DNA of 10,601 bases from a virus. The stretch lies in the UHGV virus genome UHGV-1629802. One strand, written 5' to 3'. This document shows positions 1 through 10,601 of this stretch, piece after piece. The translations under genes were made by a program, and so were the position numbers. The notes under the pieces are model-generated. The model worked only from the letters and a program-made list of their open reading frames with translations, searched no databases and was not told the origin of the DNA. Within the stretch, counting starts at the first letter, position 1. Each line of letters begins with the position of its first letter.

Positions 1-23
1 CGTCAGATGTGTATAAGAGACAG
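1..23. other. Nextera/Tn5 mosaic-end adapter remnant (CGTC + AGATGTGTATAAGAGACAG), not phage sequence
   Basis: Bases 5-23 read AGATGTGTATAAGAGACAG, the 19-bp Tn5 mosaic end used in tagmentation libraries. The preceding CGTC matches the 3' end of the Nextera read-1 adapter. Lambda-like coding sequence begins at base 24. Confidence 0.85.
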
Positions 24-2311
<2,288 letters not shown>

Positions 2312-2331
<20 letters not shown>

Positions 2332-3631
2332 TCTCCCGCATATTGCCAGCATGGCCTTTAATGAGCCGCTGATGCTTGAACCCGCCTATGCGCGGGTTTT
2401 CTTTTGTGCGCTTGCAGGCCAGCTTGGGATCAGCCGCCTGACGGATGCGGTGTCCGGCGACAGCCTGACTGCCCAGGAGGCACTCGCGACGCTGGCATTA
2501 TCCGGTGATGATGACGGACCACGACAGGCCCGCAGTTATCAGGTCATGAACGGCATCGCCGTGCTGCCGGTGTCCGGCACGCTGGTCAGCCGGACGCGGG
2601 CGCTGCAGCCGTACTCGGGGATGACCGGTTACAACGGCATTATCGCCCGTCTGCAACAGGCTGCCAGCGATCCGATGGTGGACGGCATTCTGCTCGATAT
2701 GGACACGCCCGGCGGGATGGTGGCGGGGGCATTTGACTGCGCTGACATCATCGCCCGTGTGCGTGACATAAAACCGGTATGGGCGCTTGCCAACGACATG
2801 AACTGCAGTGCAGGTCAGTTGCTTGCCAGTGCCGCCTCCCGGCGTCTGGTCACGCAGACCGCCCGGACAGGCTCCATCGGCGTCATGATGGCTCACAGTA
2901 ATTACGGTGCTGCGCTGGAGAAACAGGGTGTGGAAATCACGCTGATTTACAGCGGCAGCCATAAGGTGGATGGCAACCCCTACAGCCATCTTCCGGATGA
3001 CGTCCGGGAAACACTGCAGTCCCGGATGGACGCAACCCGCCAGATGTTTGCGCAGAAGGTGTCGGCATATACCGGCCTGTCCGTGCAGGCTGTGCTGGAT
3101 ACCGAGGCTGCAGTGTACAGCGGTCAGGAGGCCATTGATGCCGGAATGGCTGATGAACTTGTTAACAGTACCGATGCGATCACCGTCATGCGTGATGCAC
3201 TGGATGCACGTAAATCCCGTCTCTCAGGAGGGCGAATGACCAAAGAGACTCAATCAACAACTGTTTCAGCCACTGCTTCGCAGGCTGACGTTACTGGCGT
3301 GGTGCAAGCGACGGAGGGCGAGAACGCCAGCGCTGCGCAGCCGGACGTGAACGCGCAGATCACCGCAGCGGTTGCGGCAGAAAACAGTCGCATTATGGGG
3401 ATCCTCAACTGTGAGGAGGCTCACGGACGCGAAGAACAGGCACGCGTGCTGGCCGAAACCCCCGGTATGACCGTGGAAACGGCCCGCCGCATTCTGGCCG
3501 CAGCACCACAGAGTGCACAGGCGCGCAGTGACACTGCGCTGGATCGTCTGATGCAGGGGGCACCGGCACCGCTGGCTGCAGGTAACCCGGCATCTGATGC
3601 CGTTAACGATTTGCTGAACACACCAGTGTAA
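2312..3631 (+). CDS. C: Prohead protease / minor capsid protein gpC (439 aa, S49/ClpP-like), GTG start
   Basis: GTG at 2312 preceded by GGAGGAG at 2301-2307. Translation begins (M)TAELRNLPHIASMAFNEPLMLEP..., the lambda gpC N-terminus. The ORF track's 2177 start is an in-frame upstream extension inside B. C overlaps the B 3' end by 20 nt. Confidence 0.9.
3026..3631 (+). CDS. nu3: Capsid scaffolding protein gpNu3 (201 aa), internal in-frame start within C sharing the C stop
   Basis: ATG at 3026 is in frame with C (3026-2312 = 714 = 238 codons) and gives MDATRQMFAQKVSAYTGL... through the C stop. This nested arrangement is the established lambda C/Nu3 organisation. The start cannot be distinguished from sequence alone. 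Confidence 0.8.
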   Translation: MDATRQMFAQKVSAYTGLSVQAVLDTEAAVYSGQEAIDAGMADELVNSTDAITVMRDALDARKSRLSGGRMTKETQSTTVSATASQADVTGVVQATEGENASAAQPDVNAQITAAVAAENSRIMGILNCEEAHGREEQARVLAETPGMTVETARRILAAAPQSAQARSDTALDRLMQGAPAPLAAGNPASDAVNDLLNTPV

Positions 3632-3640
3632 GGGATGTTT

Positions 3641-3973
3641 ATGACGAGCAAAGAAACCTTTACCCATTACCAGCCGCTGGGCAACAGTGACCCGGCACAT
3701 ACGGCAACCGCGCCCGGCGGATTGAGTGCGAAAGCGCCTGCAATGACCCCGCTGATGCTGGATACCTCCACCCGTAAGCTGGTTGCGTGGGATGGCACCA
3801 CCGACGGTGCTGCCGTTGGCATTCTGGCGGTTGATGCTGACCAGACCAGCACCACGCTGACGTTCTACAAGTCCGGCACGTTCCGTTATGAGGATGTGCT
3901 CTGGCCGGAGGCTGCCAGCGACGAGACGAAAAAACGGACCGCGTTTGCCGGAACGGCAATCAGCATCGTTTAA
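3641..3973 (+). CDS. D: Head decoration protein gpD (110 aa)
   Basis: ATG at 3641 with AAGGG at 3630-3634. Translation [12 protein letters not shown]...[11 protein letters not shown] is recognised as gpD. The ORF-track start at 3635 sits too close to the ribosome-binding site. Confidence 0.93.
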
Positions 3974-3990
3974 CTTTACCCTTCATCACT

Positions 3991-4015
3991 AAAGGCCGCC
4001 TGTGCGGCTTTTTTT
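3991..4015 (+). terminator. Terminator-like hairpin in the D-E gap: stem GCCGC / loop CTGT / stem GCGGC followed by T7
   Basis: Sequence AAAG-GCCGC-CTGT-GCGGC-TTTTTTT read directly. It has a 5-bp GC stem extendable through A:U and G:U pairs and a 7-T tract, and lies between the D stop (3971-3973) and the E start (4029). Confidence 0.5.
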
Positions 4016-4028
4016 ACGGGATTTTTTT

Positions 4029-5054
4029 ATGTCGATGTACACAACCGCCCAGCTGCTGGCGGCAAATGAGCAGAAATTTAAGTTTGATCCGCTGTTTCTG
4101 CGTCTCTTTTTCCGTGAGAGCTATCCCTTCACTACGGAGAAAGTCTATCTCTCACAAATTCCGGGACTGGTAAACATGGCGCTGTACGTTTCGCCGATTG
4201 TTTCCGGTGAGGTTATCCGTTCCCGTGGCGGCTCCACCTCTGAATTTACGCCGGGATATGTCAAACCCAAGCATGAAGTGAATCCGCAGATGACCCTGCG
4301 TCGCCTGCCGGATGAAGATCCGCAGAATCTGGCGGACCCGGCTTACCGCCGCCGTCGCATCATCCTGCAGAACATGCGTGACGAAGAGCTGGCCATTGCT
4401 CAGGTCGAAGAGATGCAGGCAGTTTCTGCCGTGCTCAAGGGCAAATACACCATGACCGGTGAAGCCTTCGATCCGGTTGAGGTGGATATGGGCCGCAGTG
4501 CGGCGAACAACATCACGCAGTCCGGCGGCACGGAGTGGAGCAAGCGTGACAAGTCCACGTATGACCCGACCGACGATATCGAAGCCTACGCGCTGAACGC
4601 CAGCGGCGTGGTGAATATCATCGTGTTTGATCCGAAAGGCTGGGCGCTGTTCCGTTCCTTCAAAGCCGTCAGGGAGAAGCTGGATACCCGTCGCGGCTCT
4701 CATTCCGAGCTGGAGACAGCGGTGAAAGACCTGGGTAAAGCGGTGTCCTATAAGGGGATGTATGGCGATGTGGCCATCGTCGTGTATTCCGGACAGTACG
4801 TGGAAAACGGCGTCAAAAAGAACTTCCTGCCGGACAACACGATGGTACTGGGGAACACTCAGGCACGCGGTCTGCGCACCTATGGCTGCATTCAGGATGC
4901 GGACGCACAGCGCGAAGGCATTAACGCCTCTGCCCGTTACCCGAAAAACTGGGTGACCACCGGCGATCCGGCGCGTGAGTTCACCATGATTCAGTCAGCA
5001 CCGCTGATGCTGCTGGCTGACCCTGATGAGTTCGTTTCCGTACAACTGGCGTAA
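4029..5054 (+). CDS. E: Major capsid protein gpE (341 aa)
   Basis: ATG at 4029 gives MSMYTTAQLLAANEQKFKFDPLFLRLFF...DPDEFVSVQLA, recognised as lambda gpE. The ORF-track start at 4002 is a GTG inside the upstream hairpin and is rejected. Confidence 0.94.
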   Translation: MSMYTTAQLLAANEQKFKFDPLFLRLFFRESYPFTTEKVYLSQIPGLVNMALYVSPIVSGEVIRSRGGSTSEFTPGYVKPKHEVNPQMTLRRLPDEDPQNLADPAYRRRRIILQNMRDEELAIAQVEEMQAVSAVLKGKYTMTGEAFDPVEVDMGRSAANNITQSGGTEWSKRDKSTYDPTDDIEAYALNASGVVNIIVFDPKGWALFRSFKAVREKLDTRRGSHSELETAVKDLGKAVSYKGMYGDVAIVVYSGQYVENGVKKNFLPDNTMVLGNTQARGLRTYGCIQDADAQREGINASARYPKNWVTTGDPAREFTMIQSAPLMLLADPDEFVSVQLA

Positions 5055-5058
5055 TCGT

Positions 5059-5083
5059 GGCCCTTCGGGGCCATTTTCTCTCT
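5059..5083 (+). terminator. Hairpin just after the E stop: GGCCC-TTCG-GGGCC (UUCG tetraloop) followed by AUUUUCUCUCU
   Basis: Perfect 5-bp GC stem with a TTCG loop at 5059-5072, followed by a U-rich tract at 5073-5083. It lies in the 41-nt E-FI gap. Confidence 0.45.
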
Positions 5084-5095
5084 GTGGAGGAGTTC

Positions 5096-5491
5096 ATGAC
5101 GAAAGATGAACTGATTGCCCGTCTTCAGGAGCTGGGTGAGCAACTGAACCGCGATGTCAGTTTGACGGGAACGAAAGAAGAACTGGCGCTCCGTGTGGCA
5201 GAGCTGGAAGAGGAGCTTGATGACACGGATGACACTGCCGATCAGGATACCCCTATCAGCCCGGAAAATGCGCTGACCGGACATGAAAATGAGGTTGTAT
5301 CAGCGCAGCCGGATACCGTAACTGATACGGCTGATCTGGTCACGGTTGTGGCACTGGTGACGCTGCATACTGATGCACTTCACGCCACGCGGGATGAACC
5401 TGTGGCATTTGTGCTTCCGGGAACGGCGTTTCGTGTCTCTGTCGGTGTGGCAGCTGAAATGACAGAGCGTGGTCTGGCCAGAATGCAATAA
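5096..5491 (+). CDS. FI: DNA packaging / head assembly accessory protein gpFI (131 aa here)
   Basis: ATG at 5096 preceded by GGAGG at 5086-5090. Translation MTKDELIARLQELGEQLNRDVSLTGTKEELALRVAELEEELDD... is recognised as lambda FI. The ORF-track start at 5057 is an upstream over-extension. Confidence 0.9.
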   Translation: MTKDELIARLQELGEQLNRDVSLTGTKEELALRVAELEEELDDTDDTADQDTPISPENALTGHENEVVSAQPDTVTDTADLVTVVALVTLHTDALHATRDEPVAFVLPGTAFRVSVGVAAEMTERGLARMQ

Positions 5492-5502
5492 CGGGAGGCG
5501 CT

Positions 5503-5856
5503 GTGGCTGATTTCGATAACCTGTTCGATGCTGCCATTGCCCGCGCCGATGAAACGATACGCAGGTACATGGGAACGTCAGCCACCATGACATCCGGTGA
5601 GCAGTCCGGTGCAGTGATACGTGGTGTTTTTGATGACCCTGAAAATATCAGCTATGCCGGACCGGGCGTGCGTGTTGAAGGCTCCAGCCCGTCCCTGTTT
5701 GTCCGGACTGATGATGTGCGGCAGCTGCGGCGCGGAGACACGCTGACCATCGGTGAGGAAAACTTCTGGATAGACCGGATTTCGCCGGATGATGGCGGAA
5801 GTTGTTATCTCTGGCTTGGGCGTGGCGCGCCGCCTGCCGTTAACCGTCGTCGCTGA
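5503..5856 (+). CDS. FII: Head-tail connector protein gpFII (117 aa), GTG start
   Basis: GTG at 5503 preceded by GGGAGG at 5493-5498. Translation (M)ADFDNLFDAAIARADETIRRYMGTSATMTSGEQSGAVIRGVFDDPENISY... is recognised as gpFII. Confidence 0.9.
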   Translation: MADFDNLFDAAIARADETIRRYMGTSATMTSGEQSGAVIRGVFDDPENISYAGPGVRVEGSSPSLFVRTDDVRQLRRGDTLTIGEENFWIDRISPDDGGSCYLWLGRGAPPAVNRRR

Positions 5857-5866
5857 AAGGGGATGT

Positions 5867-6445
5867 ATGGTCATAAGAGGTCTTGAGCAGGCCGTTGGGA
5901 ACCTCAGCCGTATCAGCAAAAAAGCAGTGCCCGGCGCCGCCGCAATGGCCATTAACCGCGTTGCTTCATCCGCGATATCGCAGTCGGCGATACAGGTTGC
6001 CCGTGAGACAAAGGTACGCCGGAAACTGGTAAAGGAAAGGGCCAGGCTGAAAAGGGCAACGGTCAAAAACCCGCTGGCCAGAATCAGGGTTAACCGGGGG
6101 GATTTGCCCGTAATCAGGCTGGGTAACGCGCGGGTTGTCCTGTCCCGACGCAGGCGTCGTAAAAAGGGGCAGCGTTCAGCCCTGAAAGGTGGCGGCAGCG
6201 TGCTTGTGGTGGGAAACCGTCGTATTCCCGGCGCGTTTATTCAGCAACTGAAAAATGGCAGGTGGCATGTCATGCAGCGTGTGGCCGGGAAAAACCGTTA
6301 CCCCATTGATGTGGTGAAAATCCCGATGGCGGTGCCGCTGACCACGGCGTTTAAACAGAATATTGAGCGGATACGGCGTGAGCGTCTTCCGAAAGAGCTG
6401 GGCTATGCGCTGCAGCATCAACTGAGGATGGTAATAAAGCGATGA
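5867..6445 (+). CDS. Z: Tail completion protein gpZ (192 aa)
   Basis: ATG at 5867 gives MVIRGLEQAVGNLSRISKKAVPGAAAMAINRVASSAISQ...[10 protein letters not shown], recognised as gpZ. The ORF-track start at 5789 overlaps FII and is rejected. Stop overlaps the U start (ATGA at 6442-6445). Confidence 0.88.
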   Translation: MVIRGLEQAVGNLSRISKKAVPGAAAMAINRVASSAISQSAIQVARETKVRRKLVKERARLKRATVKNPLARIRVNRGDLPVIRLGNARVVLSRRRRRKKGQRSALKGGGSVLVVGNRRIPGAFIQQLKNGRWHVMQRVAGKNRYPIDVVKIPMAVPLTTAFKQNIERIRRERLPKELGYALQHQLRMVIKR

Positions 6446-6837
6446 AACATACTGAACTCCGTGCAGCCGTACTGGATGCACTGGAGAAGCATGACACCGG
6501 GGCGACGTTTTTTGATGGTCGCCCCGCTGTTTTTGATGAGGCGGATTTTCCGGCAGTTGCCGTTTATCTCACCGGCGCTGAATACACGGGCGAAGAGCTG
6601 GACAGCGATACCTGGCAGGCGGAGCTGCATATCGAAGTTTTCCTGCCTGCTCAGGTGCCGGATTCAGAGCTGGATGCGTGGATGGAGTCCCGGATTTATC
6701 CGGTGATGAGCGATGTCCCGGCACTGTCAGATTTGATCACCAGTATGGTGGCCAGTGGCTATGACTACCGGCGCGACGATGATGCGGGCCTGTGGAGTTC
6801 TGCCGATCTGACTTATGTCATTACCTATGAAATGTGA
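6442..6837 (+). CDS. U: Tail terminator protein gpU (131 aa)
   Basis: ORF 6442..6837 translating [48 protein letters not shown]..., recognised as lambda gpU. Start is coupled to the Z stop. Confidence 0.93.
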
Positions 6838-6844
6838 GGACGAT

Positions 6845-7585
6845 ATGCCTGTACCAAATCCAGTAATGCCGGTGAAAGGGGCCGGAACCACCCTGTGGGT
6901 TTATAACGGGAGCGGCGACCCTTATGCGAACCCGCTTTCAGACAATGACTGGTCGCGTCTGGCAAAAGTTAAAGACCTGACGCCCGGCGAACTGACCGCG
7001 GAGTCCTATGACGACAGCTATCTCGATGATGAAGATGCGGACTGGACTGCGACCGGGCAGGGGCAGAAATCCGCCGGTGATACCAGCTTCACGCTGGCGT
7101 GGATGCCCGGAGAGCAGGGGCAGCAGGCGCTGCTGGCGTGGTTTAATGAAGGTGATACCCGTGCTTATAAAATCCGCTTCCCGAACGGCACGGTCGATGT
7201 GTTCCGTGGCTGGGTCAGCAGTATCGGTAAGGCGGTGACGGCGAAGGAAGTGATCACCCGCACGGTGAAGGTCACCAATGTGGGACGACCGTCGATGGCT
7301 GAAGATCGCAGTACGGTGACGGCGGCAACCGGCATGACGGTAACGCCAGCCAGTGCTTCCGTGGTGAAAGGGCAGAGCACCACGCTGACCGTGGCATTCC
7401 AGCCGGAAGGCGTAACTAACAAGAGCTTCCGTGCGGTGTCTGCGGATAAAACAAAAGCCACCGTGTCGGTCAGTGGTATGACCATCACCGTGAAGGGCGT
7501 TGCTGCAGGTAAGGTCAACATTCCGGTTGTATCCGGTAATGGTGAGTTTGCTGCGGTTGCAGAAATCACCGTCACCGCCAGTTAA
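6845..7585 (+). CDS. V: Major tail tube protein gpV (246 aa) with C-terminal Ig-like (Big_2) domain
   Basis: ATG at 6845 preceded by GAGGA at 6836-6840. Translation [33 protein letters not shown]...[14 protein letters not shown] is recognised as gpV. The ORF-track start at 6815 overlaps U and is rejected. Confidence 0.93.
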
Positions 7586-7600
7586 TCCGGAGAGTCAGCG

Positions 7601-8023
7601 ATGTTCCTGAAAACCGAATCATTTGAATATAACGGCGTGACCGTCACGCTTTCTGAACTGTCAGCCCTGCAGCGTATTGAGCATCTTGCCCTGATGAAAC
7701 GGCAGGCAGAACCGGCGGGATCCGACAGCAACCGGCAGGTTACTGTGGAAGACGTCATCAGAACCGGCGCGTTTCTGGTGGCGATGTCCCTGTGGCATAA
7801 CCATCCGAAGAAGACGCAGATGCCGTCCATGAATGAAGCCGTTAAACAGATTGAGCAGGAAGTGCTTACCACCTGGCCCACAGAGGCAATTTCTCATGCT
7901 GAAAACGTGGTGTACCGGCTGTCCGGTATGTATGAGTTTGTGGTGAATAATGCCCCCGAACAGGCAGAGGACGCCGGGCCTGCAGAGCCTGTTTCTGCGG
8001 GAAAGTGTTCGACGGTGAGCTGA
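7601..8023 (+). CDS. G: Tail assembly chaperone gpG (140 aa)
   Basis: ATG at 7601 gives MFLKTESFEYNGVTVTLSELSALQRIEHLALMKRQAE...PVSAGKCSTVS, recognised as gpG. Stop TGA at 8021-8023. Confidence 0.93.
   Translation: MFLKTESFEYNGVTVTLSELSALQRIEHLALMKRQAEPAGSDSNRQVTVEDVIRTGAFLVAMSLWHNHPKKTQMPSMNEAVKQIEQEVLTTWPTEAISHAENVVYRLSGMYEFVVNNAPEQAEDAGPAEPVSAGKCSTVS
7999..8005 (+). promoter_or_regulatory. Programmed -1 ribosomal frameshift slippery heptamer G GGA AAG (G frame), producing the G-T fusion
   Basis: GGGAAAG at 7999-8005, read in the G frame as GCG GGA AAG TGT. A -1 slip gives GGG AAA GTG TTC GAC..., which continues into the T frame (8005..8439). This is the established lambda G/GT recoding site. 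Confidence 0.88.
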
Positions 8024-8439
8024 GTTTTGCCCTGAAACTGGCGCGTGAGATGGGGCGACCCGACTGGCGCGCCATGCTTGCCGGGATGTCATCCACGGAG
8101 TATGCCGACTGGCACCGCTTTTACAGTACCCATTATTTTCATGATGTTCTGCTGGATATGCACTTTTCCGGGCTGACGTACACCGTGCTCAGCCTGTTTT
8201 TCAGCGATCCGGATATGCATCCGCTGGATTTCAGTCTGCTGAACCGGTGTGAGGCTGACGAAGAGCCTGAAGGTGATGTGCTGATGCAGAAAGCGGCAGG
8301 GCTTGCCGGAGGTGTTCGTTTTGGTCCGGACGGGAATGAAGTTATCCCCGCCTCCCCGGATGTGGCGGACATGACGGAGGATGACGTAATGCTGATGACA
8401 GTATCAGAAGGGATCGCAGGAGGAGTCCGGTATGGCTGA
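8005..8439 (+). CDS. T: gpT segment of the tail assembly chaperone, expressed only as the gpG-T fusion (7601..8004 joined to the -1 frame through 8439)
   Basis: ORF 8005..8439 in the -1 frame relative to G, translating (V)FDGELSFALKLAREMGRPDWRAMLAGMSSTEYADWHRFYS..., recognised as lambda T. It has no independent initiation signal and the slippery site lies immediately upstream. Confidence 0.88.
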   Translation: MFDGELSFALKLAREMGRPDWRAMLAGMSSTEYADWHRFYSTHYFHDVLLDMHFSGLTYTVLSLFFSDPDMHPLDFSLLNRCEADEEPEGDVLMQKAAGLAGGVRFGPDGNEVIPASPDVADMTEDDVMLMTVSEGIAGGVRYG

Positions 8440-10601
8440 ACCGGTAGGCGATCTGGTCGTTGATTTAAGTCTGGATGCGGCCAGATTTGACGAGCAGATG
8501 GCCAGAGTCAGGCGTCATTTTTCCGGTACGGAAACTGATGCGAAAAAAACAGCGGCAGTCGTTGAACAGTCGCTGAGCCGACAGGCGCTGGCTGCACAGA
8601 AAGCGGGGATTTCCGTCGGGCAGTATAAAGCCGCCATGCGTATGCTGCCTGCACAGTTCACCGACGTGGCCACGCAGCTTGCAGGCGGGCAAAGCCCGTG
8701 GCTGATCCTGCTGCAACAGGGTGGTCAGGTTAAGGACTCCTTCGGCGGGATGATCCCCATGTTCCGGGGGCTTGCCGGTGCGATCACCCTGCCGATGGTC
8801 GGGGCCACCTCGCTGGCGGTGGCGACCGGTGCGCTGGCGTATGCCTGGTATCAGGGTAACTCAACCCTGTCCGATTTCAACAAAACGCTGGTCCTTTCCG
8901 GTAATCAGTCGGGTCTGACGGCAGATCGTATGCTGGTCCTGTCCAGAGCCGGGCAGGCGGCAGGGCTGACGTTTAACCAGACCAGCGAGTCACTCAGTGC
9001 ACTGGTTAAGGCGGGGGTAAGCGGTGAGGCTCAGATTGCGTCCATCAGCCAGAGTGTGGCGCGTTTCTCTTCTGCATCCGGCGTGGAGGTGGACAAGGTC
9101 GCTGAAGCCTTCGGGAAGCTGACCACTGACCCGACGTCGGGGCTGACGGCGATGGCGCGCCAGTTCCATAACGTGACGGCGGAGCAGATTGCGTATGTTG
9201 CTCAGTTGCAGCGTTCCGGCGATGAAGCCGGGGCATTGCAGGCGGCGAACGAGGCCGCAACGAAAGGGTTTGATGACCAGACCCGACGCCTGAAAGAGAA
9301 CATGGGCACGCTGGAAACCTGGGCAGACAGGACAGCACGGGCATTCAAATCCATGTGGGATGCGGTGCTGGATATTGGTCGTCCTGATACCGCTCAGGAG
9401 ATGCTGATTAAGGCAGAGGCTGCGTTTAAGAAAGCGGACGACATCTGGAATCTGCGCAAGGATGATTATTTTGTTAACGATGAAGCGCGGGCGCGTTACT
9501 GGGATGATCGTGAAAAGGCCCGTCTTGCGCTTGAAGCCGCCCGAAAGAAGGCTGAGCAGCAGAGTCAACAGGACAAAAATGCGCAGCAGCAGAGCGATAC
9601 CGAAGCGTCACGGCTGAAATATACCGAAGAGGCACAGAAGGCTTACGAACGCCTGCAGACACCGCTGGAGAAATATACCGCCCGTCAGGAGGAACTGAAC
9701 AAGGCACTGAAAGACGGGAAAATCCTGCAGGCAGATTACAACACGCTGATGGCGGCGGCGAAAAAGGATTATGAAGCGACGCTGAAAAAGCCGAAACAGT
9801 CCGGCGTGAAGGTGTCTGCGGGCGATCGTCAGGAAGACAGTGCTCATGCTGCCCTGCTGACGCTTCAGGCTGAACTCCGGACGCTGGAGAAGCATGCCGG
9901 AGCAAATGAGAAAATCAGCCAGCAGCGCCGGGATTTGTGGAAGGCGGAGAGTCAGTTCGCGGTACTGGAGGAGGCGGTGCAACGTCGCCAGCTGTCTGCA
10001 CAGGAGAAATCCCTGCTGGCGCATAAAGATGAGACGCTGGAGTACAAACGCCAGCTGGCTGCACTTGGCGACAAGGTTACGTATCAGGAGCGCCTGAACG
10101 CGCTGGCGCAGCAGGCGGATAAATTCGCACAGCAGCAACGGGCAAAACGGGCCGCTATTGATGCGAAAAGCCGGGGGCTGACTGACCGGCAGGCAGAACG
10201 GGAAGCCACGGAACAGCGCCTGAAGGAACAGTATGGCGATAATCCTCTGGCGCTGAATAACGTCATGTCAGAGCAGAAAAAGACCTGGGCGGCTGAAGAC
10301 CTGCTTCGCGGGAACTGGATGGCAGGCCTCAGGTCCGGCTGGAGCGAGTGGAAAGAGAGTGCCACGGACAGTATGTCGCAGGTTAAAAGTGCTGCCACGC
10401 AGACCTTTGATGGTATTGCGCAGAATATGGCGGCGATGCTGACCGGCAGTGAACAGAACTGGCGCAGCTTCACCCGTTCCGTGCTGTCCATGATGACAGA
10501 AATTCTGCTTAAGCAGGCAATGGTGGGGATTGTCGGGAGTATCGGCAGCGCCATTGGCGGGGCTGTTGGTGGCGGAGCATCCGCGTCAGGCGGTACAGCC
10601 A
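8432..10601 (+). CDS. H: Tail tape-measure protein gpH, N-terminal ~723 codons (3' end lies outside the window)
   Basis: ATG at 8432 preceded by GGAGGAG at 8418-8424. I translated the frame by hand to the window end and found no stop: MAEPVGDLVVDLSLDAARFDEQMARVRRHFSGTE...ILLKQAMVGIVGSIGSAIGGAVGGGASASGGTA. This is recognised as lambda gpH. It is absent from the supplied ORF track, presumably because it lacks a stop. The start overlaps the T 3' end by 8 nt. Confidence 0.92.
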   Translation, partial: MAEPVGDLVVDLSLDAARFDEQMARVRRHFSGTETDAKKTAAVVEQSLSRQALAAQKAGISVGQYKAAMRMLPAQFTDVATQLAGGQSPWLILLQQGGQVKDSFGGMIPMFRGLAGAITLPMVGATSLAVATGALAYAWYQGNSTLSDFNKTLVLSGNQSGLTADRMLVLSRAGQAAGLTFNQTSESLSALVKAGVSGEAQIASISQSVARFSSASGVEVDKVAEAFGKLTTDPTSGLTAMARQFHNVTAEQIAYVAQLQRSGDEAGALQAANEAATKGFDDQTRRLKENMGTLETWADRTARAFKSMWDAVLDIGRPDTAQEMLIKAEAAFKKADDIWNLRKDDYFVNDEARARYWDDREKARLALEAARKKAEQQSQQDKNAQQQSDTEASRLKYTEEAQKAYERLQTPLEKYTARQEELNKALKDGKILQADYNTLMAAAKKDYEATLKKPKQSGVKVSAGDRQEDSAHAALLTLQAELRTLEKHAGANEKISQQRRDLWKAESQFAVLEEAVQRRQLSAQEKSLLAHKDETLEYKRQLAALGDKVTYQERLNALAQQADKFAQQQRAKRAAIDAKSRGLTDRQAEREATEQRLKEQYGDNPLALNNVMSEQKKTWAAEDLLRGNWMAGLRSGWSEWKESATDSMSQVKSAATQTFDGIAQNMAAMLTGSEQNWRSFTRSVLSMMTEILLKQAMVGIVGSIGSAIGGAVGGGASASGGTA

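Follow-up and report, generated by a model that had tools for sequence, protein, structure and literature searches.

The window, that is, the whole stretch of 10,601 nucleotides that was analysed, begins with 23 bases, CGTCAGATGTGTATAAGAGACAG, which are followed from base 24 by GTGTATGAACGCTCG… and by morphogenesis genes of a lambda-like phage (Table 1). Comparison with oligonucleotide sequences shows that bases 1-23 are identical to the final 23 nt of the Nextera read-1 adapter Tn5ME-A, 5'-TCGTCGGCAGCGTCAGATGTGTATAAGAGACAG-3', and that the 19-bp Tn5 mosaic end (ME), AGATGTGTATAAGAGACAG, occupies positions 5-23 of the plus strand with 0 mismatches. The original prediction had placed a Tn5 ME preceded by CGTC, as in the Nextera read-1 adapter, at this position, and the comparison with Tn5ME-A agrees with it to the base. 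The sequences of Tn5ME-A and Tn5ME-B are printed in Picelli et al. 2014 (PMC4248319), and a literature search found the Nextera A 33-mer in 3,773 papers. The discrimination of adapter A from other ME-bearing constructs rests on 4 nt, for which a chance match has a probability of 1 in 256: the CGTC directly 5' of the ME agrees at 4/4 positions with adapter A (…GCGTC) and at 0/4 with adapter B (…CTCGG). Over bases 1-23 as a whole, the Tn5ME-B arm (…GGCTCGG + ME) matches at 19/23 positions, with 0/4 upstream of the ME, where B reads TCGG.

Table 1. Features at the left end of the contig and extent of the phage insert
Feature	Position	Strand	Basis
CGTC, tail of the sequencing-primer part of Nextera A (…GGCAGCGTC)	1..4	+	oligonucleotide match, directly 5' of the ME
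19-bp Tn5 ME, transferred strand, 3' end joined to the insert	5..23	+	exact match, sole copy in the window
Public gene call, first 7 residues (SDVYKRQ) adapter-coded	3..530	+	exact 175-aa product on record
Spurious antisense ORF in gene A, adapter-coded over its final six codons and stop (LSLIHI*)	3..236	-	ORF list, translation
3' part of terminase large-subunit gene A, codons 474-641 and stop	24..530	+	alignment to lambda 2130-2636
Insert with left-arm morphogenesis genes A', W, B, C/Nu3, D, E, FI, FII, Z, U, V, G, T, H'	24..10601	+	colinear with lambda 2130-12711

The ME stands alone in the window. A second copy is absent from both strands with up to 3 mismatches tolerated, and dinucleotide-preserving shuffles gave a mean of 0.01 matches to the ME 19-mer at the same tolerance of ≤3 mismatches. 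Remnants of TruSeq, P5, P7, the Nextera A 14-mer and the Nextera B 15-mer were not found elsewhere in the window. The right end carries neither a partial reverse-complement ME nor foreign bases, the alignment to lambda reaching base 10601.

The border between the 23 bases and the phage DNA is sharp. All alignments listed, from megablast searches with bases 1-1200 and with the full window against phages and with the full window against Escherichia coli, begin at query base 24. These searches covered 50,697 phage records and 5,426 complete E. coli genomes, and the full window returned 80 full-length phage matches and a match in 4,262 of the 5,426 genomes. Base 24 corresponds to nt 2130 of lambda (NC_001416), in which gene A spans 711-2636, and is the first base of codon 474 of that gene (711 + 3 x 473 = 2130). 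From base 24 to the stop codon at 528-530 the A frame has 0 differences from lambda 2130-2636, the 5' 1,419 nt of gene A are missing, and the join lies inside a conserved gene. The 23 nt that natively precede this point in lambda, …CTGGCGGGATTGACCCGACCATT, agree with bases 1-23 of the window at 6/23 positions, and base 23, immediately before the join, is G in the window vs T in lambda. The claim that the lambda gene A reading frame starts abruptly at base 24 is thus borne out, and the homology of all listed relatives starts at the same base. A 35-mer spanning the adapter/gene A junction had 0 matches in IMG/VR, GTDB genome contigs and JGI metagenome contigs, so that these collections provide no second independent copy for comparison.

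A search with the adapter-containing gene product identified the window as the entire contig NODE_392_length_10601_cov_6.211170 of the ENA assembly ERZ652030, a SPAdes-style name that indicates low coverage (cov 6.2). Because the window is the complete contig, base 1 is a true contig end, and the adapter points inward from it. A literature search for ERZ652030 gave no paper. The 175-aa product used in this search starts from base 3, consists of SDVYKRQ followed by gene A residues, and is recorded exactly once, on NODE_392 of ERZ652030 with the gene at 3-530. Adapter-coded residues have already entered a public protein catalogue in this way; SDVYKRQ is encoded by no organism. Two further reading frames had been said to be contaminated by the adapter, ORF 9..530 (+) at its start and ORF 3..236 (-) at its C-terminus, and both are: the GTG 'start' of the former falls inside the adapter, and the LSLIHI* that ends the latter results from translation of the ME in reverse complement together with the TGA of the adapter.

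From base 24 to base 10601 the window was aligned with NC_001416 2130-12711, which gave 233 differences over 10,578 nt (229 substitutions and 4 gap positions; 97.8% identity). The differences are unevenly spread, with 2 in window positions 24-3000 and 231 in 3000-10601, where they reach at most 22 per 250 nt; A' and W are identical to lambda, B has 1 difference, and local divergence is 2-8% from gene C onward. The gaps include a 3-nt in-frame deletion in FI at ~5321-5323 (131 vs 132 aa) and the loss of 1 nt from the intergenic spacer between FII and Z at ~5858. Third codon positions account for 150 of the 224 coding differences, and the reading frame is open in each of the 14 genes or gene parts (A' to H'). 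Sequencing error as the cause of the divergence was rejected, since the differences cluster after position 3000, favour codon position 3 and break no gene. As read from this alignment, the divergence is evolutionary and under purifying selection. The change in divergence near base 3000 resembles a mosaic or recombination junction within gene C, close to where Nu3 starts, as far as the distribution of differences indicates; alternatively, at 6x coverage, two strains may have been merged into a chimeric consensus.

The closest phage record is phage 434, and none of the 50,697 phage records exceeds 97.9% identity over the full length. Among the 5,426 complete E. coli genomes, identity is at most 97.9% across the full length and at most 97.6% across bases 3000-10601, and related left arms at ≥80% coverage were found in 3,005. 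The contig is about equally distant, at 97.6-97.9%, from all phage records and complete E. coli genomes. By these comparisons the insert is classed as an ordinary wild lambdoid phage or prophage of mosaic composition.

The original prediction had also raised the concern that the lambda DNA might be a laboratory control or contaminant. In favour of such an origin one can cite window positions 24-3000, which with their 2 differences are nearly identical to the reference, as well as the occurrence of records that are identical to lambda but bear another name, such as 'Campylobacter phage CJLB-4'. Laboratory lambda, however, would be expected to show near-100% identity to NC_001416/J02459 along its whole length, and what was found is 97.8%, with 233 differences, a bias to codon position 3 and every gene open. 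For the contig as assembled the concern is refuted, and we regard a laboratory origin of the phage part as very improbable. The record just named, MW057783.1, has the same bit scores against the window as reference lambda, with coordinates shifted by ~80 nt. Under its Campylobacter phage name it seems to hold lambda itself, and this is contamination of the sort that the prediction had in mind. A separate point concerns the annotation of tail gene Z, whose intact ORF at 5867-6445 (+), with its ATG at 5867, encodes 192 aa, 9 of which are not those of lambda Z. The public gene call for Z on ERZ652030 NODE_392 covers 6200-6445 (81 aa) and is therefore too short, the full 192-aa ORF being intact from 5867.

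The same 23-mer ends many other public contigs. A scan of IMG/VR found it in at least 120 stretches, with 121 occurrences listed, and 120 of those 121 are directed inward from a sequence end that is at most 97 nt away. The full 33-mer is present at 91 of 120 loci among the IMG/VR matches listed. Downstream, 120 different 20-mers adjoin the 3' end of the ME among these matches, which shows that the adapter was joined to unrelated DNA each time. The sole internal copy among those listed, at 2164-2186 of L006 (IMGVR_UViG_3300000510_000121), is preceded by …NN, CAC, an octamer that resembles an index, TATCCTCT, and the complete 33-mer. It was considered as a counter-example to the terminal position and rejected, because it comes directly after an NN scaffold gap and so also represents an untrimmed contig end, located inside a scaffold.

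A match to the Nextera A adapter is present in 105 phage records of GenBank/RefSeq, and in most of those listed it stands at the end of the record. Several of the adapter-bearing entries are records of lambda-like coliphages, and several belong to RefSeq. Examples among deposited records are NC_049386.1 (1297-1329), MK373775.1 (149749-149781) and NC_049953.1 (1-33; Escherichia phage ev099). In a few of the 105 phage records the adapter lies within genes annotated as a terminase and a long tail fibre, a position suggestive of misjoins mediated by the adapter or of contig ends that were re-circularised. Published surveys of public assemblies for Nextera adapter contamination were sought in the literature, and nothing specific was found.

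The bases that follow the adapter were also compared. Over the first 9 insert bases of the 121 IMG/VR junctions listed there is a dyad-symmetric bias, G1/C9, T2/A8, Y4/R6 and W5. Of these 121 junctions, 49 start with G and 47 have C as the ninth base; T is the second base in 62 and A the eighth in 49, a pyrimidine is the fourth in 90 and a purine the sixth in 89, and W is the fifth in 84. Tn5 transposition produces a 9-bp duplication (PMC4248319), and a dyad-symmetric bias of this kind fits, as expected, a transposase that makes 9-bp staggered cuts. The bias at the IMG/VR junctions amounts to an empirical Tn5 cut-site preference recovered from untrimmed public contigs. In the window, bases 24-32, GTGTATGAA, agree with 5/7 of the biased positions, and this fit of GTGTATGAA is consistent with tagmentation and lends it slight support.

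Bases 1-23 are a known technical artefact and no biological feature; they almost certainly stem from the Nextera read-1 adapter (Tn5ME-A), part of which was left untrimmed and became the tip of an assembled metagenome contig. That the contig starts with a library artefact rather than with biology had been proposed from the sequence beforehand, and the proposal is supported by the identity with adapter A, the inward orientation, the break in homology, the position at the end of a whole contig and the same 23-mer on unrelated contigs. The proposal went on to say that the boundary is a tagmentation site and not the edge of a genome or prophage, and this too holds, the 3' end of the ME abutting the insert and homology breaking at the ME/insert junction. 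As the adapter is found at this junction, the left boundary of the contig is a transposase cut site and not a phage, prophage or genome end.

The remnant could have arisen as follows. A Tn5 dimer loaded with synthetic ME adapters would have cut lambda-like DNA inside gene A, at the equivalent of lambda nt 2130, and the 3' end of the transferred strand would have been joined to the 5' end of the phage DNA, as the published chemistry and the exact junction indicate. Sequencing primers presumably anneal on the adapter, in which case adapter bases would be read only where the insert is shorter than the read. A read from the far (B) side would then pass through the insert into the complement of adapter A, appearing as CTGTCTCTTATACACATCTGACG…, and longer read-through reads would go on upstream into GCTGCCGACGA, then the index, then P5. 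Trimming probably missed these adapter bases, and the assembler would have extended the contig into the adapter for 23 nt before it ended there. The adapter bases were then translated by gene callers. The length of 23 nt possibly reflects the difference between read and insert length, incomplete trimming, or branching of the assembly graph in the shared adapter.

Other origins of the ME were weighed against an adapter remnant. An engineered ME transposon of the EZ-Tn5 or mini-Tn5 type, such as those of Tn-seq, might have inserted in vivo into the A gene of a lambdoid prophage; the contig would then end shortly after entering the transposon. Such elements carry an ME at both ends, the same orientation to the flanking DNA would be expected of them, and 4 nt of the supposed transposon body are visible in the window. 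All 4 of these nucleotides, however, match Nextera adapter A, whereas the commercial EZ-Tn5 <KAN-2> has ...GGTTG, not ...GCGTC, before its ME. The window contains no second ME, and the rest of such an element would lie off the contig. In addition, the source is an ENA metagenome-style assembly, the host phage is a wild variant and not a laboratory strain, and the same 23-mer ends at least 120 unrelated IMG/VR contigs. We consider this origin highly improbable; if true, a transposon with a Nextera-A-like arm in the terminase gene would mean that engineered transposon DNA was present in the sampled community.

The adapter might instead derive from a PCR primer with an Illumina/Nextera forward overhang, as in two-step amplicon protocols; base 24 would then be a primer site, and the 23 bases would still be an artefact. 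The 33-mer is widely used on locus-specific primers, and most of the top-listed papers that contain it are amplicon studies, so that the sequence alone is not strict proof of a transposase cut. Against a primer stand the nature of the material, namely 10.6 kb of shotgun-assembled phage DNA at ~6x in a multi-contig assembly, and the lack of any reason for a primer in lambda gene A; the agreement of the first 9 insert bases with the Tn5 cut-site bias at 5/7 positions argues mildly in the same direction. An overhang primer is accordingly given very little probability.

Even less credit can be given to a natural Tn5/IS50 end, which would imply a real transposon in a prophage. The natural outside end (OE) does share 16/19 positions with the ME, but the 19-mer of the window has 0 mismatches to the synthetic ME and 3 to the natural OE, CTGACTCTTATACACAAGT, and a natural end was rejected on this comparison. 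Relative to the Tn5 inside end (IE), the window 19-mer has 4 mismatches. The contig stops 4 nt past the ME and contains a single junction, whereas a natural insertion would have IS50 body next to its end and a 9-bp target duplication at the other end. The natural OE sequence, CTGACTCTTATACACAAGT, is taken from oligonucleotides in PMC3347997, where the ME is described as a chimera of OE and IE nucleotides optimised for in vitro use; PMC4248319 describes it as a hyperactive end that replaces the wild-type end sequences in vitro. A chance origin is effectively excluded, the exact 23-mer being expected ~3e-10 times in 10.6 kb with both strands counted.

With an adapter remnant as the preferred reading, bases 1-23 should be trimmed, and the left contig end should be treated as arbitrary and not as a phage, prophage or cos boundary. 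The adapter-coded residues of both ORFs are to be disregarded, and the significance of the feature is one of data hygiene only. Since the remnant is widespread (at least 120 IMG/VR contigs and 105 GenBank/RefSeq phage records), a screen of contig ends with the 19-mer is worthwhile, and it should precede any analysis of termini, gene starts or insertion sites.

Set beside known systems, the start of the window is closest to the Nextera read-1 adapter Tn5ME-A, whose last 23 nt it equals in the same orientation, with the 3' end of the ME joining the insert. It differs in its length of 23/33 nt: because the contig stops, it lacks the adapter's first 10 nt as well as the index and P5. The adapter remnants in public sequences (IMG/VR, and GenBank/RefSeq entries such as NC_049953.1) resemble it in having the 23-mer at a terminus, directed inward and followed by unrelated genomic sequence, whereas most of them carry the full 33-mer and some carry index bases; the remnant in the window is shorter and runs from contig base 1. 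The natural Tn5/IS50 OE is likewise a 19-bp transposase-binding end, with 16/19 positions in common with the window, but the 3 diagnostic positions differ, and at these the window has the synthetic hyperactive ME. The phage DNA beyond the adapter is colinear with the left arm of lambda (NC_001416 nt 2130-12711), shares its gene content and gene order, and departs from it in its divergence from gene C onward, in the 3-nt deletion in FI and in the 1-nt deletion between FII and Z.
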